Assembly: GCA_947624085.1 (NCBI GenBank)
Contig: CANQIK010000003.1
Span: forward strand, 1 to 55,409
From: an uncultured Bacilli bacterium
Lineage (GTDB): Bacteria > Bacillota_I > Bacilli_A > RF39 > UBA660
Direction: 5' to 3'
DNA length: 55,409 nucleotides
Shown: positions 1 to 29,990 of the stretch, piece by piece
Position numbering within the stretch: position 1 is the first letter of the stretch
How the letters are laid out: every line of letters starts with the position of its first letter
Program-made: the position numbers and the translations under genes
The notes under the pieces: model-generated
Database searches by the model: none
What the model was told of the DNA's origin: nothing
The model's input: only the letters and a program-made list of their open reading frames with translations

Positions 1-164
1 TATTTAGCTGCTTCTATCATATGAAGTCCTTCTTCACCTAGGGCTCCTTTTCTTGCTCTTGTTATAAGTGGTCCTATGGCAGTAGTGGCAATTAATACTA
101 TTACCCCTAATATTACGATAACTGCTATTAATTCTATTAAGGTAAATCCTTTCCGATTCTTCAT
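1..164 (-). CDS. Type IV pilin-like protein, 5' fragment (gene continues past the left window edge)
   Basis: Minus-strand translation from the ATG at 164-162 gives MKNRKGFTLIELIAVIVILGVIVLIATTAIGPLITRARKGALGEEGLHMIEAAK. This is a short basic leader, a G|FTLxE prepilin cleavage/methylation motif with Glu at +5, and a hydrophobic helix. The ORF is truncated by the window edge, so it is absent from the ORF track. Confidence 0.8.
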   Translation of the reverse strand, partial: MKNRKGFTLIELIAVIVILGVIVLIATTAIGPLITRARKGALGEEGLHMIEAAK

Positions 165-4224: not shown

Positions 4225-5456
4225 TTAATTATCCTCGTATATATTTGTCCCGGTTCTAATATTTCATCTAACTCAATTCTTAAATAATTAGAGGTATGCC
4301 CAATTGATTTATTAGCTTTAACTTCTTCAATTAAGATAGGTTTAGCTGTTCCCTTAAATTTATCATAATATTTTTTTTCTAATTTTTCGGATAAGGCAAT
4401 TAACTTTCTTGCCCGGTCTTTTTTAACATTTTCCGCTACAGGTTCAGGCATTAAAGAGGCCTTAGTCCCTGTTCGTTTTGAGTAAGGAAAGACATGAATT
4501 TTAGCAAAATTAATTTTTTCACAAAAAGCATAGGTTTTATTAAAAAGTTCTTCCGTTTCATAGTTATGACCTACTATAACATCAGTAGTAATTGCAATAT
4601 CGGGAATAATACTTCTAATCTTATTTATCTTATCCCAAAAGTAAGCTGTATCATACTTACGATTCATAATCTTTAGCATTTCATCACAGCCCGCTTGTAA
4701 AGGAATATGTAAGTGATCACAAAAAACTTTATTTTCTTTTAACATAGCTAAAAATTTATCATTAAGTTCCGTTATTTCAACACTAGATAATCTTAATCTT
4801 TCTAAACCTTTAATATTGGTTAAATCATTAATTAAATCCGTTAAATCATGACCAGAATGATGATAAGAACCTGTATGAATACCAGTTAAAACGATTTCTT
4901 TAATTCCTTTATTAACTAAACTTTGGGCTTCTTTAATAACTTCTTCATAATCTTTAAAACGAATAGAGCCTCGAACATAAGGGATAATACAATATGAGCA
5001 AAAATTATCACAGCCATCTTGGATTTTAATATATGCTCTTACTTGATTAAATTTCGTTATAAACATATCTTCAAAAGGCATAATTCGCTCATCATTAATA
5101 TAACTATATCTTTTACAATCTTGGATATATTCTTTAAGTAATTGAGGAATTTTAGATTTATCTTTATTACCTAGAAGAATATCGATATCCATATTTTCAT
5201 ATGCTTCTTTATTATTTTGACTAGAACAACCACAGACAATTAAGATAGCATTAGGATTTTCTCTTTTTATTCTTCTGACCATCTTTAGGCTTTTTTTATC
5301 AGAAGTATCCGTAACTGTACATGTATTAATAATTACGATATCGGCTTTGGTAAAGTCATCACAAAAAAGAAAACCATTATTTTCTAATGATTCACTTATA
5401 TAATTAGATTCATATGCATTAACCTTGCACCCCAAAGTTATAATGTTAAATTTCAT
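4221..5456 (-). CDS. mtaB: tRNA methylthiotransferase (MtaB/YqeV-like radical SAM enzyme)
   Basis: 411 aa. It has the N-terminal UPF0004 Cys pattern (LGCKVN...NTCTV...CGC) and the radical-SAM CxxxCxxC motif (CDNFCSYC). There is a 4-nt overlap with recD2. Confidence 0.85.
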   Translation of the reverse strand: MKFNIITLGCKVNAYESNYISESLENNGFLFCDDFTKADIVIINTCTVTDTSDKKSLKMVRRIKRENPNAILIVCGCSSQNNKEAYENMDIDILLGNKDKSKIPQLLKEYIQDCKRYSYINDERIMPFEDMFITKFNQVRAYIKIQDGCDNFCSYCIIPYVRGSIRFKDYEEVIKEAQSLVNKGIKEIVLTGIHTGSYHHSGHDLTDLINDLTNIKGLERLRLSSVEITELNDKFLAMLKENKVFCDHLHIPLQAGCDEMLKIMNRKYDTAYFWDKINKIRSIIPDIAITTDVIVGHNYETEELFNKTYAFCEKINFAKIHVFPYSKRTGTKASLMPEPVAENVKKDRARKLIALSEKLEKKYYDKFKGTAKPILIEEVKANKSIGHTSNYLRIELDEILEPGQIYTRIIK

Positions 5457-5465
5457 AAAGCCCCC

Positions 5466-5942
5466 TTAGTTTAATCCTTTTTGTAACTCCTTTAAAGCTC
5501 TTAAAAATTCTTCTTCTTTTTCTAAAGATAATAAAGGTACTTCTTTAGGATTAACTTCTATTTGCATATTTTGATTTGCTATATTATTTAAGTCTACTTT
5601 TTTAATCGTGACATCATCTTTTACTTCTTCATCCGTATAATTAAGTTCAAATTCTCCCGTATTTGATAAAAGCTCATCATAGGAAATAATAGCTTTATCT
5701 TCTTGCTCTTTTTCATAGGGAGTAAAGGTAATAGGTTTAGGATCAATAGCTTTTAAATTATTAACTATTTCTTTCAAGTTATCAGTATCTTCTATCTTTT
5801 CCGTACTTTCAATAATCTCTTCATTAATCTTAATAAAATATATAAGACTTACAACTAATATAATTAAAAAAATAACCGAGAAAAAGAAGACATAATCAAT
5901 AAAGGTAATGCTTTTTAAAAATGAACTTATATTAGCAAACAT
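5466..5942 (-). CDS. Hypothetical membrane-anchored acidic protein
   Basis: 158 aa with one N-terminal TM helix (FIDYVFFFSVIFLIILVVSLIYFI) and an acidic Glu/Lys-rich tail. I recognise no family. Confidence 0.5.
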   Translation of the reverse strand: MFANISSFLKSITFIDYVFFFSVIFLIILVVSLIYFIKINEEIIESTEKIEDTDNLKEIVNNLKAIDPKPITFTPYEKEQEDKAIISYDELLSNTGEFELNYTDEEVKDDVTIKKVDLNNIANQNMQIEVNPKEVPLLSLEKEEEFLRALKELQKGLN

Positions 5943-5998: not shown

Positions 5999-7222
5999 CT
6001 AATTGTTTCCTAAAATGTACGGATTATTGACAGAGCCATCACCGCTCACTACTGTTGATGTTTTATTAATCGTAATTACGGGTCTTATGCCTGCAACCGA
6101 GGTTCCATTTGTGCTTGTTAAACTACCATCAGCGCCAAGGGAAAAGGCAAAATATGAGCCATCTCCATCAAGGAAAGCCGATGTCATGGTAAAGGCACTA
6201 GAACTCATGTGGTCGTTATATAGAAAGTAAGCTTCATTAGCTTGACCATAAACTCCACCGGCATAGACTATTTCATCAGCCGTTAATAAAGCGACTTTAC
6301 CACTATAAGTATCGCCTAAACAATAAAACGTTGGAATATTATCTTTGGTAAGTCTTTGATTTGCTAAATACCCATTATCAGTTCTCGTTAAATCATTACA
6401 ATATTTTTGCGTTGCAACAATATCACTATACTCGCCTAAAGATGTTAATAACCAATTATTTAAAGAATTAATAATACTACTATGGGCAATATCAAAGTTA
6501 GTATCATAATAACGATTAAGAAGCTCTAAATTATCATTTAAAACTAGTTTAATTGAGCCATCGCCATTAATACGAACTATTCTAAATAATAAATCATTAA
6601 TTAAAACATAATTATTAGTTACATTACCTCTAAAGTAATAAGTTGTGCCATTATCATCAGTTGCTTCAATTAAGCCCTCATCACTAGTAGCTACATCAAT
6701 ACCTACTTTTGTTAAAGTTGCTTTTTTAATTTCATTATTATTAATGATAACATCGGCAAAACTTGAAGATTCTAAAGTTTCCATATTAACATCAATATCT
6801 AAACTAAATTCATCATCAACTTCAGAGGCAAAACTAATATCAAATGTTTCTACTTCCCCCGCACCAATTAAGATATAACTCGATACAATAGCATTATAAG
6901 GAAGTAACTCACTTTCAATATTTATATCATTGTTATTGGTAATCTTATAAGTTGCTTTAGGCACATTTTGCACATTTTCAAATTCAATATAATAATAAGC
7001 GTCTTCATTAGAATCATTTATGATAGATATTTGGGTTTCTTTATGTCCTTTAACCGTAACATGATTACCCGTACTAAAATTAATTGATAAGTTACCAGAT
7101 ACTTTAATATAAGGCTCTTTGCCTAGAAGATGACCATAGCTAATGTAAAAACCACCAAGCACTACACTGCCGATTAAGAGAAATAATATAATTAAAAGGG
7201 CACTTTTAAATCTTGTTCTCAT
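5999..7222 (-). CDS. Secreted/surface protein: TasA-like N-terminal signal/module plus divergent 'RPV' cargo domain
   Basis: 407 aa. The N-terminus MRTRFKSALLIILFLLIGSVVLGGFYISYGHLLG has the same signal style as the 30562-33618 cluster. The C-terminal half aligns motif by motif with the cargo family: TYYFRGNVTNNYV..LFRIVRINGDG, LLTADEIVYAGG, AFTMTSA, AGIRPVITINKTSTVVSGDGSVNNPYIL. Confidence 0.7.
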   Translation of the reverse strand: MRTRFKSALLIILFLLIGSVVLGGFYISYGHLLGKEPYIKVSGNLSINFSTGNHVTVKGHKETQISIINDSNEDAYYYIEFENVQNVPKATYKITNNNDINIESELLPYNAIVSSYILIGAGEVETFDISFASEVDDEFSLDIDVNMETLESSSFADVIINNNEIKKATLTKVGIDVATSDEGLIEATDDNGTTYYFRGNVTNNYVLINDLLFRIVRINGDGSIKLVLNDNLELLNRYYDTNFDIAHSSIINSLNNWLLTSLGEYSDIVATQKYCNDLTRTDNGYLANQRLTKDNIPTFYCLGDTYSGKVALLTADEIVYAGGVYGQANEAYFLYNDHMSSSAFTMTSAFLDGDGSYFAFSLGADGSLTSTNGTSVAGIRPVITINKTSTVVSGDGSVNNPYILGNN

Positions 7223-7285
7223 AACATCAACTATCCTACAATCAAAATTATATTATAATACTATGAAAAAAGCTAGTAAATTTTC

Positions 7286-8167
7286 CTAATTTGGGTATTT
7301 TTCTTTAACTTTAAAATAAGCCACTATTATTAAACTGTCCTCATTAAAAACTTCTTCTTCATTATTATTATCGTTAAAATAGGTATATAAACTCTCTTTA
7401 TATTCTTTTAAAGACTTATAACCTCCAATTTTATAATCTTTTAAACTTACCTTTAAATCTTTAAAAGGCATTATTTCTTCTTTCTCAATTTCAATTAAAG
7501 CCCGATAATTATTATCTTTATCAAGGACAAAGTATTTATTTCCTTTAACGGAATTTAAATAGCCATATTTGCGAAATATTCGCGTTTGTTTCTCCCCTTT
7601 TAATATAGCTTCAAGCATTTTATCACTAGCCTTAAAATAATCAACATCTTGATATTTATAAACCTTTTTATTATTTACCCTTTTAAATATTTGTTTAGCT
7701 TCTAAATCATCAAGAATCTTATAATATTTTTTATTCTTTTTCCGATTAAGATGTTCTTTTTTATATGCCATAATTTCTTGTGAATCAGTATAATCTTTAA
7801 GACCAATAAGTTTTAAATAACCTTGTAATTTATTTAAAAATAAAATTTCAGCTTTGGCATAATCCTCTAAATATTTACTAGGAATATTAAAAGACTCGGG
7901 ATAAGTATATAAGCTTTCAATAACCGTATTAAAATTATGACAACAAATAATTTTACTTTCACTTTTAAGAACGTTTTTCTCTTCATCATAGTCTTTTAAC
8001 ACTACTTCAATATGATATGTTAAATTTTCTTTAATTATTTCACTAAAGGCTTCATAAATCTCATTTCTTTGGCTTATTACTTCGCCATTATTAAAAAGCC
8101 AGATAGCCGTATCATCATTAGTAATAGATATGGGCAAACTACATTTTTTAAATTTATTGTACTTCAT
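7286..8167 (-). CDS. Hypothetical protein with C-terminal ASCH (PUA-like) domain
   Basis: 293 aa. The last ~110 aa (MLEAILKGEKQTRIFRK...YFVLDKDNNYRALIEIEKEEIMPFKDL...YKSLKEYKESLYTYF) fit the ASCH pattern. The N-terminal half is unassigned. Confidence 0.45.
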   Translation of the reverse strand: MKYNKFKKCSLPISITNDDTAIWLFNNGEVISQRNEIYEAFSEIIKENLTYHIEVVLKDYDEEKNVLKSESKIICCHNFNTVIESLYTYPESFNIPSKYLEDYAKAEILFLNKLQGYLKLIGLKDYTDSQEIMAYKKEHLNRKKNKKYYKILDDLEAKQIFKRVNNKKVYKYQDVDYFKASDKMLEAILKGEKQTRIFRKYGYLNSVKGNKYFVLDKDNNYRALIEIEKEEIMPFKDLKVSLKDYKIGGYKSLKEYKESLYTYFNDNNNEEEVFNEDSLIIVAYFKVKEKYPN

Positions 8168-10868: not shown

Positions 10869-11783
10869 CTAATTTCGCATATTTTCTATTAATATACCAA
10901 TATTTGATCCTACTTTATCTTTAAGTTCCTCGACGTTTTCACAATAATTTTTTTCGCGTTTTATAGCATCATCAATTTTGTCAACGAACATATCAAAATT
11001 TAAATTAGCTTTATCATATCCTATTATTTCTGAAAGCATTTTATCTGAATATTTTTTAGATCTTTTATTTGAATTAACGCGTTTATTTTCTAATAACTTA
11101 TCAAAATCTAAAGTATCAAACTGTTCAAAATGCATTAATAACCAAGCTTCAAAACAAGGATTACTTACATATAATTTAATATTATTTTTCTTACAACTAC
11201 TCACTAAATTATCATATTGATCTGGTTTAAAGTTACCCTTATCTCGATCAACAATTAAATTAATAACGTCAATTTCTGAATTATAGTCAAGAATAACTCT
11301 TTGAACATCTAAATAATTAATAATTTCAGAGGCTATATTTTCAAAGACATCATCTTTAAATATATCCATGATTATATTATCAATCTCACATAAATCTATT
11401 ATATCATTGGCATAATTTTCAATATAATTTTTTGCCATTTTTATTAATTCTTCTTTATTAAATAAAGCTTCATTTTTTATATAATCAACTAGGCATTTAT
11501 ATAAATTTTCTTTACTAATAACATTTTCGGTGCTCTGAGATTTAATGTCATTTGCCATTTTCAACGCATATTTAGGATGACTTTTAGAGGAGTCATCTAA
11601 ACTTCTTAGAACACTAATTAAAGATAATGATTGATTTATTGCTAATTTTTCTCTGTTAACTATGATACCATTAAAATACATTGGTTCAGTTACTTCGCCT
11701 TCATATATTAAAAAATACTTAGGCATTTCTGTCATTGTTTCATTTGGTCTTTCTGCAAATTTACTATTTGTCTGTACCCTCAT
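10869..11783 (-). CDS. RloB-like (Toprim-type) protein, partner of the upstream ATPase; AbiLii-like defence component
   Basis: 304 aa. RloB hallmarks are present: N-terminal FLIYEGEVTEPMYF, acidic IVDRD, and SNPCFEAWLLMHFE. It overlaps the ATPase gene by 20 nt, so the pair is translationally coupled. The true start could be M17 or M20. Confidence 0.8.
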   Translation of the reverse strand: MRVQTNSKFAERPNETMTEMPKYFLIYEGEVTEPMYFNGIIVNREKLAINQSLSLISVLRSLDDSSKSHPKYALKMANDIKSQSTENVISKENLYKCLVDYIKNEALFNKEELIKMAKNYIENYANDIIDLCEIDNIIMDIFKDDVFENIASEIINYLDVQRVILDYNSEIDVINLIVDRDKGNFKPDQYDNLVSSCKKNNIKLYVSNPCFEAWLLMHFEQFDTLDFDKLLENKRVNSNKRSKKYSDKMLSEIIGYDKANLNFDMFVDKIDDAIKREKNYCENVEELKDKVGSNIGILIENMRN

Positions 11784-13125
11784 TATATACCCCCGGAAAA
11801 TCTATAAAAATAGGAACTGCACCATATCTACCATCTAAATAGGCTTTATCTATCTTACGATCAAATCTAGCATCATCTTTAAATTGTTCCAATGAATATA
11901 ATTTTGTTGAGCCATCCTTTTTCTTTTCGGCAAACCATACTTCATCTCTTCTTAAAACATTATAACTCAATAATCGAGATTCATGAGTTGTAATTATCAA
12001 TTGGATATTTCTATTTTTTAATAGATTTAAAAAACAATTAACAAATCTAACTGTAAGAGATGGATGCAAGCTTCGATCAATCTCATCAATAATGAAAACT
12101 TTATTATCGGATAATAATATATCAATTAATTCTAAAATTCGAAGTGTTCCGTCAGATTCTTCATAAGTATCAAAATAAGTATTAGAATTAGTATGTAATA
12201 TTTTTATAACTTTTACATTAAGATTTTCATCTTTATTATTGCCACTTATTGTATATATACAATTTTCAATTCTTAAAGTTATATCAAATTTTGACACATT
12301 ATTGCTTATTTGATTAATATCAGATGTAAGTCTACTATATTCCGCTGGGGAAAGTCTATCTTTAATTTCTGACATATTAGATTCGCATTCTAATAAATCA
12401 TCGATATCAAGACCTAACATTTTTAATAAAGGTTTAATATCATTTTTAAATTGTGAAAAATAATTAAATTTAATTTCTCGATTTTGATTAGGCAATACTA
12501 ATTGCAAATCGTTTAGAAAAAAGTCAAAAACATTCTCAAAGTCAATAAAAGAAGAAGTTTTAACATCATTCATTTGGATTCTTCTTGTCATTTCAGTAAG
12601 AAAAAAGATATTATTATTATTTAATATATCACTTTTACAAACTTCAAAGCGGTTGGCATCGACTTTATCTTTTATTTTTAAATCCGTTTTAATCGTTTTT
12701 TTAATAGCATCTCTTTCAAATATAATAAACTGATTGTTTTTAGTCATATCAATAAGCCACTCAGAAACGATTTCTTTCTTATTGATATTTACTTCAAACC
12801 CATATGAATATAATTTATTATTTTTGGCAATTTCATATTCAAAATAAGAAGGTATTTCTTTATTTTTTTCATTTAGCCTAAAATATTGATTGGCAAACAA
12901 GCCTTGAATGTTATTAAGTAAAAGCTTTTTTCCTAAATCTATAGCTAAAACTAAATTAGATTTACCAGAGGCATTAGCACCATATATAGAACTAAATTTT
13001 AATATTTTTAAATTATTAATATTAGCGATATGTTCTGGAAAGTTTCGCGTTTTGCCCGCGACCATAGAAAAATGTTGCATATCATTAAATGACCTAAAAT
13101 TTTTAACTTTAAAGCCAATTAGCAT
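11764..13125 (-). CDS. AAA_21/ABC-type ATPase (AbiLi / OLD-, PARIS AriA-like defence ATPase)
   Basis: 453 aa. It has the N-terminal IGFKVKNFRSF, Walker A GANASGKSN, signature-like ESDGTLR, Walker B VFIIDEIDRSLHP, H-loop ITTHES, and a C-terminal YLDGRYGAVP. Confidence 0.85.
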   Translation of the reverse strand: MLIGFKVKNFRSFNDMQHFSMVAGKTRNFPEHIANINNLKILKFSSIYGANASGKSNLVLAIDLGKKLLLNNIQGLFANQYFRLNEKNKEIPSYFEYEIAKNNKLYSYGFEVNINKKEIVSEWLIDMTKNNQFIIFERDAIKKTIKTDLKIKDKVDANRFEVCKSDILNNNNIFFLTEMTRRIQMNDVKTSSFIDFENVFDFFLNDLQLVLPNQNREIKFNYFSQFKNDIKPLLKMLGLDIDDLLECESNMSEIKDRLSPAEYSRLTSDINQISNNVSKFDITLRIENCIYTISGNNKDENLNVKVIKILHTNSNTYFDTYEESDGTLRILELIDILLSDNKVFIIDEIDRSLHPSLTVRFVNCFLNLLKNRNIQLIITTHESRLLSYNVLRRDEVWFAEKKKDGSTKLYSLEQFKDDARFDRKIDKAYLDGRYGAVPIFIDFPGVYNEGTDK

Positions 13126-16452: not shown

Positions 16453-16486
16453 GCTCGCCTCGCACCGTAAAGGCGCGAAGACGAGC
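16453..16486 (-). other. Long GC-rich hairpin immediately 3' of the 16500-18185 stop codon (no U-tract)
   Basis: The sense RNA reads GCUCGUCU(U)CGCGCC-UUUAC-GGUGCGAGGCGAGC. That is 14 bp including three G:U pairs, one bulge and a 5-nt loop. The G:U pairs become C:A mismatches on the other strand, so the structure is strand-specific. It starts 13 nt after the TGA stop. Confidence 0.7.
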
Positions 16487-16499
16487 CAATGTCCTATTT

Positions 16500-18185
16500 T
16501 CAGCTTACTTTAAATGGCTTGGATTGACTACCGTCAATACCGTCGCCACCACTTAAGGTTACACTAGAGTTTAGATAAAAGACCGGGCGCACACCATACG
16601 CGTCGTCAACGAAGTCGCCGCCGTCCACGTACCCACTGTAGCCGACATTGAACGCATAGTTAGTGCTGACTGAAACGCGCGAAATAGTCCATTCGTATAC
16701 ACCATTAAATAACCAATTATTTTCCCTGTTTTGGTTATTTTCAATTTCATCATCTTTACTATCATCATACATATAAAGCCTATATTCCCAGCTTTTTGGT
16801 TCACTTGCAAAGCCATAATCTGATGGATACATTAATCCTATTTCAGCTTGCACTTTTGTTTGTGCTCCTCCTGACTCATTCCATTCCTCATCATATACTT
16901 CTTTGGCTTTTGGTAATTCATCATTAGGATTTCCTCCAACATTCCATTGTACCTTTTCTATTTTACTTTCCCAGGTAGTACCCAATTTATTAAGAAAGCT
17001 TTTGTCATTGCTATTTAATGCTTTATATAATGAACTACTTCCCCATACATTAGCATTGTCGCTATCACAATCATCGTTCCAATGGAAACCATCAACACTA
17101 TCTTCTGCCTTTACCCTTTTTAAGCTTTTATAGTCATCCTCAAAATATTCAGTTCCATCTGCACTATCTTTGCCTAAATCATCATGAGTTGCATACTCTG
17201 ATTTTATTATTTTAAATAAATTTTGGGTTGTTGTACTATCATCTTCATTAACAACTTCGACTGGAACTATACCTATTATACGATACAAGTTACCATCATT
17301 GCAGGTATCAGATTTTCCATTATTATAGTTTTCACTGCCCGGGCCAAAACAAATAAAATTATTTGGATTACAGCCAGAATAACGATAGCCGTTATCTTCT
17401 GCGCCATTTTGTAATGTTTTATCATGCTTTAGTAATCCACCTATGCCCATAGGGCACAAATTAGATTTAGTTGTTGATATAGCCGTGTCATTCACAAGCT
17501 TTTCAGCGAACTCCTCAGCAGTTAACTTTTCGGAAAGGTTAGTTAGACCCCCCCCCGGTTTACACTTACTTGTCTTAAAATATATTTTGCCACTGAAAGT
17601 TTTGTTTAAATTTCCGTTTTGGTCTACATTTTCTAATTTATAGTGGCGGTATTTGAACGTCCAATTTTGTGTTGTAGCACTTGCGCCTTTTGTAGCAGTA
17701 ATGGAAGCATCCATTATTTTTTTGTCTGTGGATGTTTTCATGTTTTGTAAATCTAAAGATTGTTCACCTTTAGGATACAAACTGCCATTTGCAGAAGCAA
17801 CTATAGTGAGTTCATTAGCATGCGTTATGCCAAAATCACTGTCAGCATGGAACCACACTTCATAGTCACAAGTAACGCTATCATAATCTGAGTTGTTTTT
17901 TAAACTAACAGTACCTGCGCTAGAATTACTTTCAATATAATTATTTTCAGTTTCATTTGTTAATTGTAAAGGGTCAATATAAAATGTAAGGTTATTATCA
18001 GCATTTAAATTAAATGCTACATTAAGACCATTATTAAAGTTTATGTTTTCATTTATACCATTTAAAGTATTAGAAAAATAAGCAAAAGATACACTCATAA
18101 CGACAATAGCAACGAGTACTATACTTGAGGCTATCATAACAACAACTTTTTTACTATTCACTGACTTTTCTTCCGTTCTTTCCAT
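16500..18185 (-). CDS. Surface protein: TasA/camelysin-like signal and module fused through a poly-Gly (G9 tract) junction to the 'GVRPVFYL' cargo domain
   Basis: 561 aa with a strong SD AAGGAGGAAG. The N-terminus ...IVVMSVSFAYFSNTLNG resembles SipW-type signals (camelysin GGGTFAYFSD). Residues 1-209 align with the stand-alone 211-aa protein at 31925-32560 (TCDYEVWFH/TCNYKIYYQ, TQNWTFKYRHYKLENVDQ/SQTWSLHYRFYNLDVDQ, SGKIYFKTSKC/SGKIIIEGQNC). Residues ~214-561 are the cargo domain (GYRYSGCNPNNFICFGPGSENYNNG, NLYRIIGIVPVE, IKSEYAT, GLMYPSDYGFAS, ENNWLF..EWTI, GVRPVFYLNSSVTLSGGDG..KPFKV). Confidence 0.85.
   Translation of the reverse strand: MERTEEKSVNSKKVVVMIASSIVLVAIVVMSVSFAYFSNTLNGINENINFNNGLNVAFNLNADNNLTFYIDPLQLTNETENNYIESNSSAGTVSLKNNSDYDSVTCDYEVWFHADSDFGITHANELTIVASANGSLYPKGEQSLDLQNMKTSTDKKIMDASITATKGASATTQNWTFKYRHYKLENVDQNGNLNKTFSGKIYFKTSKCKPGGGLTNLSEKLTAEEFAEKLVNDTAISTTKSNLCPMGIGGLLKHDKTLQNGAEDNGYRYSGCNPNNFICFGPGSENYNNGKSDTCNDGNLYRIIGIVPVEVVNEDDSTTTQNLFKIIKSEYATHDDLGKDSADGTEYFEDDYKSLKRVKAEDSVDGFHWNDDCDSDNANVWGSSSLYKALNSNDKSFLNKLGTTWESKIEKVQWNVGGNPNDELPKAKEVYDEEWNESGGAQTKVQAEIGLMYPSDYGFASEPKSWEYRLYMYDDSKDDEIENNQNRENNWLFNGVYEWTISRVSVSTNYAFNVGYSGYVDGGDFVDDAYGVRPVFYLNSSVTLSGGDGIDGSQSKPFKVS
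16581..16682 (-). other. GC-rich, adenine-poor hypervariable patch inside cargo domain
   Basis: These are the 34 codons between EWTI and PVFYL: TCG CGC GTT TCA GTC AGC ACT AAC TAT GCG TTC AAT GTC GGC TAC AGT GGG TAC GTG GAC GGC GGC GAC TTC GTT GAC GAC GCG TAT GGT GTG CGC CCG GTC. My hand count gives 61/102 G+C and 16/102 A on the sense strand. Confidence 0.8.
17548..17556 (-). repeat. Homopolymeric G9 (C9 on plus strand) tract in coding sequence
   Basis: The plus strand reads agaCCCCCCCCCgg. The sense strand reads AAA CCG GGG GGG GGT CTA ACT AAC (KPGGGLTN). This is the longest G/C run I saw in the window; the others are 5 nt or shorter. Confidence 0.95.
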
Positions 18186-27140: not shown

Positions 27141-27707
27141 CTACTTACAATAAGTGTTTGTTTCACTATATTCACTATTAGTCCAAGTACGTGAACTACT
27201 GTTATAACTACTAGCAGGATCAATTAATTTCCTATTTGCTATTCCATCAGCAGTATTATCCATTATAATACACGCATATACCCGATTATATTCCATATAT
27301 ATTCTTATTTTTAAATTGTTTACTATAACATCATCAACCGGATTGGTCATTACGGCACAGCGCACAATCCCATCGGAATAATTGCTTTTTTGTTTAACAC
27401 ATTTAATAGAGCCCAAAGTACTTTTATTTTCATATTCGCTTGTTTCTAAGTCATTTGACTCGATTAAATCTCCTACCGTTTTAGTTATTTTTTTAGTAGC
27501 AACGCCACTGGCATTTAAAAATAATTCTTTATTATTTCCGCCATATTCTTGAGCAGCGGCAATCATTAAATCAAGTTTAGTTTCAAACATATTTTTATTA
27601 ATTTTATTTTTAATCGCCGCAATACTTGAAGAACCAATAAGGATAATAACTGTCAAGATAACTAAAACTGCTAAAAGCTCTACTAAAGTAAATCCCTTTT
27701 TATTCAT
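27141..27707 (-). CDS. Type IV pilin / pseudopilin-like protein (orphan)
   Basis: 188 aa. MNKKG|FTLVELLAVLVILTVIILIG has a prepilin leader, Glu+5 and a hydrophobic helix. Two Cys pairs (IKCVKQ...VRCAV and YACII...NTYCK) include a C-terminal disulfide-loop-like arrangement typical of pilins. Confidence 0.8.
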   Translation of the reverse strand: MNKKGFTLVELLAVLVILTVIILIGSSSIAAIKNKINKNMFETKLDLMIAAAQEYGGNNKELFLNASGVATKKITKTVGDLIESNDLETSEYENKSTLGSIKCVKQKSNYSDGIVRCAVMTNPVDDVIVNNLKIRIYMEYNRVYACIIMDNTADGIANRKLIDPASSYNSSSRTWTNSEYSETNTYCK

Positions 27708-28709: not shown

Positions 28710-29990
28710 TTAATTAACTTTGTAAGGTTTTGCGTAACTACCATCGCCACCACTTAAGATTACACTAGAGTTTAGATAGAATACAGGACGAACACCATGC
28801 ACGGTGCCAACGTGGCCGCTATTCAGATACCCAGTGTCGCCGACAAAGAACGCATTGATAGTGCCACCGCGCAAAATAGTCCATTCATAAATGGCATTAA
28901 ATAACCAATTATTTTCGCGGTTTTGGTTATTTTCTTCTTGTTCATTATCTTTAACATCATTATATTTATAAAGTCTATATTCCCAACTTTTTGGCTCACT
29001 AGCAAAGCCGTAGTCTGAGGGATACATTAGCCCTATTTTTGCTGGCACTTTTGTTTTTGCGCCATATGTGCTGCTCCATTCCTCATTATATGACTCTTTG
29101 GCTTTTGGAAGTTGATTTTTAGTACTTCCTCCAACATTCCACTGAACAGTTTCTATCTTATTTGCCCAGTTATTTAGATTATACAAATAACCTGATGAAC
29201 TGCCATTTAAAGTACTAAATAATGAACTACTACCCCATGTATTGTTATAGTCTTTATAGTCTTTGTTCCAATAGAAAGTCTCAACTCTTGTTTCAGCTTT
29301 AACTCTTTTTAAATCTTTATATGTAGAATTAAATGACTGCGTACCATCAGCTGTACTTTTTCCTAAATCACTTGCCGTTGCATATTCTGATTTTATCACT
29401 TTAATTAATTTTGTTTTTGTTCCATTTGATAATTCTACTGGGACATACCCTATTATGCGATATAAATTTCCATCAGGACACGCTCCTCCATTATTATAGG
29501 TTTCACTATTAGGTCCAAAACATATATAATTATTTGGATCATCTCCTGAATATCTATATCCCTGGTCATTAGCGCCATTTTCTAATAAGGAATTATGATA
29601 AATTAGTTCTCCTTCTCCACTTGGTCCTAATAATTTTTCAAAGAATTTTTCTTGTTCTGACTTAATATCAAAATATAATGTACAATTAGTGTTTTCATCG
29701 GCTTTTAATAAAACACTATTACTACTTGGGTTCCAATCGATTATATCTTCGGGAATTGTAGTACCATTACAGCTACTTTTTGCTACATTTAATACATAAT
29801 TACCGCTAGACCATACAGTTGAACTCCCTTGTGTATAACCACTGCCATTTTGATACATATAAGCTATACCACTATCATCTATTGTAAAATTTAATGGTTC
29901 ATTTTCCTTTTTATTTGTTAATAATATTGTGGAAATTACTACTATAACTATTACCAATAATACACTTATTATTCCTACTTTCTTTTTCAT
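28710..29990 (-). CDS. TM-anchored surface protein carrying the 'GVRPVFYL' cargo domain
   Basis: 426 aa with an N-terminal uncleaved-type anchor MKKKVGIISVLLVIVIVVISTILL and a ~110-aa unique region. The cargo domain is highly similar to 16500-18185 at both protein and DNA level (GYRYSGDDPNNYICFGPNSETYNNG, NLYRIIGYVPVE, IKSEYAT, GLMYPSDYGFASEPKSWEYRLY, ENNWLF..EWTI, GVRPVFYLNSSVILSGGDG..KPYKVN). Confidence 0.85.
   Translation of the reverse strand: MKKKVGIISVLLVIVIVVISTILLTNKKENEPLNFTIDDSGIAYMYQNGSGYTQGSSTVWSSGNYVLNVAKSSCNGTTIPEDIIDWNPSSNSVLLKADENTNCTLYFDIKSEQEKFFEKLLGPSGEGELIYHNSLLENGANDQGYRYSGDDPNNYICFGPNSETYNNGGACPDGNLYRIIGYVPVELSNGTKTKLIKVIKSEYATASDLGKSTADGTQSFNSTYKDLKRVKAETRVETFYWNKDYKDYNNTWGSSSLFSTLNGSSSGYLYNLNNWANKIETVQWNVGGSTKNQLPKAKESYNEEWSSTYGAKTKVPAKIGLMYPSDYGFASEPKSWEYRLYKYNDVKDNEQEENNQNRENNWLFNAIYEWTILRGGTINAFFVGDTGYLNSGHVGTVHGVRPVFYLNSSVILSGGDGSYAKPYKVN
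28782..28874 (-). other. GC-rich, adenine-poor hypervariable patch inside cargo domain
   Basis: These are the 31 codons between EWTI and FYL: TTG CGC GGT GGC ACT ATC AAT GCG TTC TTT GTC GGC GAC ACT GGG TAT CTG AAT AGC GGC CAC GTT GGC ACC GTG CAT GGT GTT CGT CCT GTA. My hand count gives 52/93 G+C and 14/93 A. Confidence 0.8.

Follow-up and report, generated by a model that had tools for sequence, protein, structure and literature searches.

Why does a chromosomal gene of a low-G+C bacterium contain, shortly before its 3' end, about one hundred nucleotides that are rich in G+C and poor in adenine? The question is raised by a 55,409-nucleotide contig (CANQIK010000003.1, assembly GCA_947624085.1) of an uncultured Bacilli bacterium from the RF39 lineage, which was analyzed at its full length and is called the window below. 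Three paralogous genes of the window, A, B, and C, contain such a patch in a C-terminal cargo domain. All three genes are located on the minus strand, while coordinates are given in plus-strand numbering. Gene B (16500-18185) encodes a protein of 561 aa with an N-terminal membrane anchor and a DUF6273-like (C-type-lectin-like) cargo domain. Gene C (28710-29990; 426 aa), which is entry P0003 of the database set for this family, also encodes an N-terminal membrane anchor, and the product of gene A (249-1691; 480 aa) has a Pro/Glu-rich linker and, at its N-terminus, a methylation motif of the prepilin type. The sequence-only reading of the window had likened the patches to variable regions (VRs) of diversity-generating retroelements (DGRs). 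Our analyses led to the conclusion that the patch of B (16583-16685) and its counterpart in C (28784-28877) are DGR variable regions in origin, with a probability of about 0.87. This conclusion is based on the composition, the codon-position pattern, adenine-specific mismatches to template repeats (TRs), and the complete DGR cassettes that are found beside family members in relatives.

Composition of the patches

The VR of B extends from ATT TCG CGC to CGC CCG G, is homologous to the TRs of related cassettes, and has a G+C content of 60%; the patch of C has a scaffold of the same type, and the patch of A is moderately G+C-rich (50%). On the sense strand, recounting yielded 61 G+C and 16 A in 102 nt for B (16581-16682), 52 G+C and 14 A in 93 nt for C (28782-28874), and 54 G+C and 27 A in 108 nt for A (330-437). 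These values are identical to the earlier hand counts, and the lengths of 34, 31, and 36 codons for B, C, and A, respectively, were also confirmed. The composition is indeed foreign to the flanks: without the patches, the three genes have a G+C content of 31-34% and an A content of 38-40%. Among all 102-nt segments of the contig (mean 30.4 G+C, standard deviation (SD) 6.1), the patch of B is the maximum with 61 G+C, five SD above the mean; only two segments reach this value and only 97 reach 54.

The preference for NNC codons in B was equally borne out, as 53% of the third codon positions in the patch are C and 3% are A, compared with 14% and 33%, respectively, outside the patch. The different codons used for GVRPV in B and C were as described. 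The statement that the patches cannot be aligned at the protein level turned out to be true for A, but not for B and C, which can be aligned at both the DNA and the protein level.

Signatures of a retroelement in B and C

The patches of B and C share a fixed scaffold (I-S/L-R ... A-F-x-V ... G-x-V/L ... V ... G-V-R-P-V). At the DNA level, one scaffold is common to B, C, and L083, the gene for the relative P0007 on a metagenome contig, and the scaffold of B is identical to that of L083. The mismatches between these sequences were quantified separately for codon positions 1 plus 2 and for position 3. In the patches, the ratios were 19:4 for B versus C, 22:2 for B versus L083, and 22:3 for C versus L083, compared with 130:113 (p=0.008), 215:154 (p=0.0009), and 174:134 (p=0.002) in the respective flanks, which corresponds to flank ratios of about 1.2-1.4 to 1. 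For B and L083, third positions differed in 2 of 30 patch codons, but in 154 of 352 flank codons (44%). The last 200 nt of the two genes are almost identical save for the variable codons, whereas upstream the identity is 45-80% per 60 nt.

A comparison between strains had been recommended beforehand. For B versus L083, the variation was restricted to the first and second positions of codons within the patch, and likewise in a near-identical subfamily. Among twelve otherwise near-identical proteins, 18 of 28 columns were variable in the patch versus 39 of 399 outside, with up to seven different residues per column. No codon-position bias was observed for A, neither in comparison with B (30:21 in the patch, 143:117 in the flanks; p=0.65) nor with C (26:19 and 165:122; p=1).

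In addition, the patches were compared with a widespread TR of another genome (L084), and the mismatches at adenine and non-adenine sites of this TR were counted. For B, mismatches were present at 22 of 38 adenine sites and at 9 of 70 non-adenine sites (p=1.5e-6), and for C at 18 of 30 and 10 of 46 sites, respectively (p=0.0013). Patch A had no adenine bias, with 19 of 37 versus 32 of 66 sites (p=0.84). Compared with the TRs of other genomes, B and C thus showed a strong adenine bias, yet also 9-10 mismatches at non-adenine sites.

The 74 family copies formed two groups, one with G+C-rich patches (0.5-0.62) that are essentially devoid of K, E, Q, W, and M, and one with A+T-rich patches that contain these residues. 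None of these residues can be encoded by NNC or NNT codons. The patches of B and C lack all of them and belong to the G+C-rich group; the patch of A contains seven W or E residues that are outside the reach of NNC/NNT codons. Together with the cassettes of relatives and the lectin-like domain described below, the codon-position pattern and the adenine-specific mismatches uphold the DGR variable-region reading for B and C. For A, which has neither bias and contains the W and E residues, it had to be abandoned: copy A either is not a DGR target or has ceased to be one. The VR of B is pristine and its scaffold is intact, while C either has another TR as its template or has gone some time without being rewritten.

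Cassettes beside related genes

A motif scan of the fetched loci of relatives revealed two reverse transcriptases (RTs), at L005 and L018, which contain the motifs LPIGNMTSQ and YMDD and match Pfam RVT_1. At L005, from a rabbit-gut metagenome-assembled genome (MAG), the target gene (4570-5916), whose cargo domain is 53% identical to that of B, is followed by the TR (6015-6121), a MutS_I-like open reading frame (ORF) encoding a MutS-like protein (MSL; 6196-6669), a bAvd-like ORF (6602-7006), and the RT gene (6981-8078). The layout at L018 is the same. The identities of MSL and Avd are based on Pfam scores of 31.6 and 25.4 bits for MutS_I (cutoff 20.6) and of 25 and 21 bits for bAvd, the latter being below the cutoff of 40 bits. 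At L005, all 15 mismatches between VR and TR are on TR adenines and none of the 68 non-adenine sites differs; at L018, 20 of 21 mismatches are on TR adenines.

A pattern that matches only un-mutated TRs yielded another 12 TRs from contigs of gut metagenomes and one from an IMG/VR contig. The order target, TR, MSL, Avd, RT, with all components on one strand, was also found in these contigs wherever they were long enough. The same architecture is present in four human-gut contigs, with partial copies in five more. A DGR RT was found beside family members at L005, L018, L085, L088, L089, and L095. In every cassette, the VR is located between EWTI and RPVFY, which is the position of the patch in the window.

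Among the loci from the genome collection, only two have an RT at a distance of up to 10 kb, and the loci of P0011, P0022, and P0007 are without any cassette. The VR of L004, a locus that also lacks a cassette, fits the TR of L005 at 66 of 68 non-adenine sites. The scarcity of nearby RTs and the fit of the L004 VR show that targets in this lineage are, as a rule, remote.

Two further observations concern the distribution of cassettes. One TR of this lineage (L096; IMGVR_UViG_3300029424_000015) is located on a contig of 44.7 kb that is viral according to IMG/VR, and some cassettes of this lineage may thus be phage-borne. One genome, BRZ_PC bin72, contains VRs of two scaffold types, EWTITP.SS.S..VF.V... 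and EWTISR.S....AF.V... (L041, L042, and L072 versus L046), which points to two TRs or two DGRs in the same genome.

Protein family and fold

The cargo domain has 504 database relatives and 539 loci in the genome collection. All listed loci are from gut MAGs, i.e. uncultured Bacilli or Tenericutes, Firmicutes CAG:460, Clostridium CAG:609, and Candidatus Onthocola and Pelethosoma, of which Onthocola is placed in Bacilli incertae sedis. Usually, several copies are present per genome. The C-terminal peptides of the family have the conserved frame EWTI...AF/VF.V...G.L/V...RPVFYL, and the positions amid this frame are occupied by N, Y, S, D, G, H, F, R, or comparable residues. When B, P0001, and P0010 were looked up as exact proteins, no record was obtained, and a literature search on DGRs together with RF39 found nothing.

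The sequence-only reading had compared the patches with VRs in C-type-lectin-fold targets, and such a fold was supported by structural modeling. In Pfam, B matched DUF6273 (PF19789) with 17.4 bits (E=0.004), below the cutoff of 23.5 bits, and C and A had no DUF6273 match. An AlphaFold2 model of the cargo domain of B, based on 34 family sequences, had a predicted local distance difference test score (pLDDT) of 88 and a predicted TM score (pTM) of 0.91. A Foldseek search with this model against BFVD gave 19 matches at E<=1e-3, eight of which are named DUF6273, and phage DUF6273 proteins were found at E values around 1e-5. The top match in the PDB was 9qa6, an IgA peptidase of Thomasclavelia ramosa (E=1e-5), the N-terminal domain of which is annotated as DUF6273. 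The TM scores were modest (0.3-0.4 on the query) because the model of B comprises more than one domain. The C-terminal 30-50 residues had weak local matches to Lcl-C/DUF1566 and C-type lectins, and a PDB sequence search with a profile of 34 family members found nothing. On the basis of the model, the cargo domain of B is thus predicted to share the fold of DUF6273 proteins. According to published work, DUF6273 is C-type-lectin-like and serves as a DGR target, the VR being located at the C-terminus of the domain (PMC10743442, PMC11792537).

Sequences downstream of the patches

The 3' tail of gene B that follows the patch (16503-16582, minus strand) is conserved. It encodes VFYLNSSVTLSGGDGIDGSQSKPFKVS and begins with the stretch TCTTTTATCT, which resembles the post-TR sequence CCTTTAT. 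B and L083 have only two differences over 120 alignment columns (16575-16456), which include 44 nt downstream of the stop codon. Both among the paralogues and for B versus L083, the DNA just past the patch (FYLNSSVTLSGGD...; 16503-16582, 28713-28783, and 252-329 on the minus strand) is far better conserved than the rest of the genes, third codon positions included. This tail may be a cis element for retrohoming, similar to the initiation of mutagenic homing (IMH) sequence, or it may reflect conversion between copies.

Two inverted repeats are present downstream of the VR of B. The first, ATTGAC-GGTA-GTCAAT (16523-16538, minus strand), is an in-frame palindrome that encodes IDGSQ. It has an A+T-rich stem of 6 bp and a loop of 4 nt that fits the published GRNA consensus, and it is located 45 nt past the RP codons. 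It is common to B, L083, and L005, occurs with the loop GGAA in L004, and is deleted in C. Its predicted fold is weak (free energy (dG) -4.7, z -1.8), and we regard it as a putative DGR target hairpin. The second is a G+C-rich hairpin (16453-16486, minus strand) that starts 13 nt past the stop codon, about 100 nt past the VR; its stem of 14 bp contains one bulge, and its loop is TTTAC (dG -12.5, z -3.1). It is kept in L005, L018, L025, L070, and L078, with two covarying pairs. The G+C-rich hairpin was not found after C or A, and the palindrome is missing from both as well. Neither of the two inverted repeats has the published geometry, in which a G+C-rich hairpin is located 4-34 bp downstream of the VR and has a GRNA loop.

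In relatives, the G+C-rich hairpin occurs only beside intact (L005, L018) or decayed (L025, L070, L078) cassettes. As it does not follow most of the G+C-rich VRs, its use as a general mark of targets was rejected. A search for hairpins with perfect stems downstream of all VRs revealed no consistent element across the family. The decayed cassettes lie behind the same hairpin and differ in what is left of them: only a fragment of MSL at L025 (9931-10340), the 5' half of the TR at L070 (10763-11160), and only the pre-TR motif TAGGGTAATCTT at L078 (8301-8700). A decayed TR downstream of B was also considered. It was rejected because, aligned with the TR regions of L005 and L018, the sequence downstream of B scored no higher than shuffled sequences, whereas L070 and L078 scored clearly.

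Proposed mechanism and alternative explanations

The family members appear to be surface proteins, with an N-terminal membrane anchor or a prepilin-type signal and a DUF6273-like, C-type-lectin-like end, and the VR would encode the last strands and loops of the lectin-like domain. In the proposed mechanism, a TR elsewhere in the genome would be transcribed and the transcript would be copied to cDNA by the DGR RT, together with Avd and the small MutS-like accessory protein. The RT would misincorporate nucleotides opposite template adenines, and the cDNA would then replace the VR. Judging from the TRs of relatives, the scaffold residues would be specified by adenine-free codons (for example GCG, TTC, GTC, GGG/GGC, GTG, CGC, and CCG), which would survive adenine mutagenesis, and the diversified residues by AAC or AAT, about three quarters of the adenines being replaced after mutagenesis. 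Such a TR would yield VRs that are G+C-rich, adenine-poor, and built of NNC/NNT codons, with copies that differ at codon positions 1 and 2 only. Restoring the adenines in the scaffold of B leads to the predicted TR ATTTCGCGC AAY TCA AAY AAY ACT AAY AAY GCG TTC AAY GTC AAY AAY AAY GGG AAY GTG in the 5' part, followed by (AAY)x5 GTT AAY AAY GCG AAY GGT GTG CGC CCG. The TR and RT of this genome are probably located outside the 55-kb contig, with B and perhaps also C as their targets in trans.

Several results weigh against the DGR reading. No RT, Avd, MSL, or TR is present anywhere in the window, and the earlier statement that RT and TR are lacking was thereby confirmed. In particular, a scan for YxDD/LTSQ motifs and Pfam scans of the 49 larger ORFs were negative for a DGR RT, and tblastn of the window with the L005 and L018 sequences of RT, Avd, and MSL was negative as well. 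To look for a TR, both strands were scanned without gaps using 45-nt pieces of the patches, and only the match between B and C was recovered; apart from it, no 45-nt part of a patch recurs at >=62% identity in the window. When the genome and metagenome contig collections were scanned with a degenerate VR/TR pattern based on B and C, there were zero matches. Because not even B and C themselves were matched, the source genome is outside both collections and its own TR was out of reach. The patch of C has at least seven substitutions at non-adenine sites of the scaffold, mostly from G/C to A/T, as well as two deletions, and C lacks both hairpins. Behind the hairpin of B, where cassette remnants were looked for, nothing recognizable follows. 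Lastly, copy A fails every DGR test and is either decayed or unrelated.

One alternative shares the DGR origin with our preferred explanation and differs from it in present-day activity alone. The VRs would be relics that were written by a DGR whose cassette has since been lost, B would be a former cis target, and the patches would be frozen and slowly decaying toward A+T. We consider this course of events possible, although less likely. The hairpin of B without TR, MSL, Avd, or RT behind it, together with the graded decay of the same layout at L070 (half a TR), L078 (the pre-TR motif), and L025 (an MSL fragment), makes a local loss of the cassette plausible, and both the departures of C from the scaffold, mostly G/C to A/T at non-adenine sites, and the fully decayed appearance of A are in line with it. 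However, the scaffold of B is intact and has kept its C-rich, A-poor third positions (53% and 3%) in a genome that drives them to A/T, and the two third-position differences to L083 in 30 codons contrast with the 154 in 352 flank codons. Moreover, the genome with the decayed L025 also contains the intact L018, so that a local remnant does not mean that the system has been lost genome-wide, and most of the intact-looking VRs in relatives are far from any RT.

The other two alternatives do without a DGR. The sequence-only reading had named a recombination or gene-conversion cassette, in which the patch would be swapped from silent donors, as in the antigenic variation of pilE/pilS or vlsE. The family is indeed multi-copy and the paralogues resemble one another unusually closely in the DNA of their 3' ends, but no silent donors, i.e. 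additional copies or fragments of the patch, were found in the window. The codon-position and adenine tests also speak against it, since the copies differ by single bases, at codon positions 1 and 2 of a fixed scaffold, instead of by mosaic blocks, and the TRs of relatives differ from the VR at adenines only, a pattern that conversion does not produce; this alternative is therefore highly improbable. Ordinary positive selection on a binding loop, with the G+C richness as a by-product of a Gly/Ala/Val/Asp-rich sequence, is, if anything, still harder to accept. G, D, V, A, and Y are frequent in the patch, and the distant paralogue at 5999-7222 has a mild G+C rise with mixed third positions. Nevertheless, the amino acid content cannot generate 53% C at third positions versus 14% in the same gene. 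Selection also leaves unexplained that third positions are conserved in the patch while the flanks differ at 44% of them, and that the mismatches to TRs are adenine-specific.

Comparison with known systems

DGRs with an MSL accessory gene have been described as 'Architecture D' by Wu et al. 2018, and the Legionella DGR carries such a gene (PMC5758913). The cassettes of the relatives are alike in their order of target, TR, MSL, Avd, and RT on one strand and in their adenine-specific mismatches. Unlike in that architecture, no component is present in the window, and the host, gut 'uncultured Bacilli/Tenericutes', and the target family are not among the examples consulted in PMC5758913. On the target side, DUF6273 proteins of gut phages, i.e. 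the tentaclins (PMC10743442) and proteins of Faecalibacterium prophages (PMC11792537), share the lectin-like domain with the VR at its C-terminal end. In contrast to these phage tail proteins, the proteins studied here are chromosomally encoded, membrane-anchored or prepilin-type cellular proteins with genes among housekeeping genes, and the Pfam score of the window protein for DUF6273 is below the threshold.

The Treponema denticola and Bordetella systems are instructive for the action in trans and for the target hairpins. The targets of the Treponema denticola DGR have FGE-sulfatase-type lectin folds. In that species, one cassette, which has an HRDC accessory gene, serves multiple remote targets including TvpA (PMC5758913). 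The present family is similar in that several copies exist per genome, far from any RT, and action in trans would also apply to the window. Published DGR target hairpins have G+C-rich stems of 7-10 bp and a GRNA loop and are located 4-34 bp after the VR (PMC3240598). As in the DGR found in Bordetella phage BPP-1 (Mtd; PMC3240598), the VR of B is at the 3' end of the target gene, is based on AAC codons, and is followed by inverted repeats. These repeats differ, however, since the GRNA palindrome of the window has an A+T-rich stem of only 6 bp and is 45 nt past the RP codons, and the 14-bp hairpin has a 5-nt loop, is about 100 nt past the VR and beyond the stop codon, and occurs only by cassettes or their remnants.

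The DGR mechanism, the MSL-type retroelement, and the DUF6273-like lectin target are thus known, and the knowledge of how DGRs work is unchanged by these results. Here they are met with in a little-studied host lineage and with a multi-copy family of cellular targets. DGR variable regions can be recognized from composition alone in a low-G+C genome, and a large unannotated family is given a predicted function, namely programmable ligand binding at the cell surface. The hosts have small genomes, and no cultured representatives are named among the retrieved loci. A hypermutation of surface lectin-like proteins at multiple targets is a lead to their attachment to the host, to mucus, or to partner cells. 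Furthermore, the intact, drifting, and decayed VRs and cassettes form a natural series for the recruitment and abandonment of DGR targets. A more far-reaching scenario would be that an MSL-type chromosomal DGR of gut Bacilli with reduced genomes acts in trans to diversify an entire multigene family of lectin-like proteins, both membrane-anchored and prepilin-fused, that cassettes are repeatedly gained and lost beside targets, and that the 14-bp hairpin of B is an undescribed element that outlives the cassette. We deem this scenario unlikely as a whole; if it were true, the hairpin behind the stop codon could be used to find former cis targets.

Other genes of the window

The window is an ordinary piece of bacterial chromosome with genes for RecD2, a MiaB-like protein, PNPase, an RluD-like protein, LspA, Ddl, a MurF-like protein, Lon, Der, an Obg-like protein, RelA/SpoT, FtsW, SHMT, FolD, RuvB, and others, among which genes A, B, and C are dispersed. 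A distant paralogue (5999-7222, minus strand) encodes a protein of 407 aa with an N-terminal anchor and the C-terminus ...AGIRPVITI...SGDGSVNNPYIL, and the protein had no match in the Pfam scan. At the homologous position (6077-6198), the G+C content of this gene rises mildly to 0.41-0.46, versus about 0.28, and the third codon positions are mixed, so that this patch is not clearly a VR.

The prepilin-type signal of A matched Pfam N_methyl with 33.4 bits (cutoff 21.2 bits); B and C have a plain hydrophobic N-terminal anchor and no prepilin methylation motif. Directly downstream of A, the start of another prepilin-type gene (1-164, minus strand) runs off the window. It includes the methylation motif and, over its first 54 residues, hardly differs from the N-terminus of A. 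From their sequences, the two genes may be a tandem pair. An ORF of 188 aa with a prepilin N-terminal methylation motif (27141-27707, minus strand) is also located about 1 kb downstream of gene C, with a GTPase gene in between. Between an S15-sized ORF next to the PNPase gene and a rhomboid gene, two overlapping genes (10869-13125, minus strand) encode an RloB-like protein and an AAA_21 (AbiEii-type) ATPase, and this pair looks like a small defense or toxin-type module.

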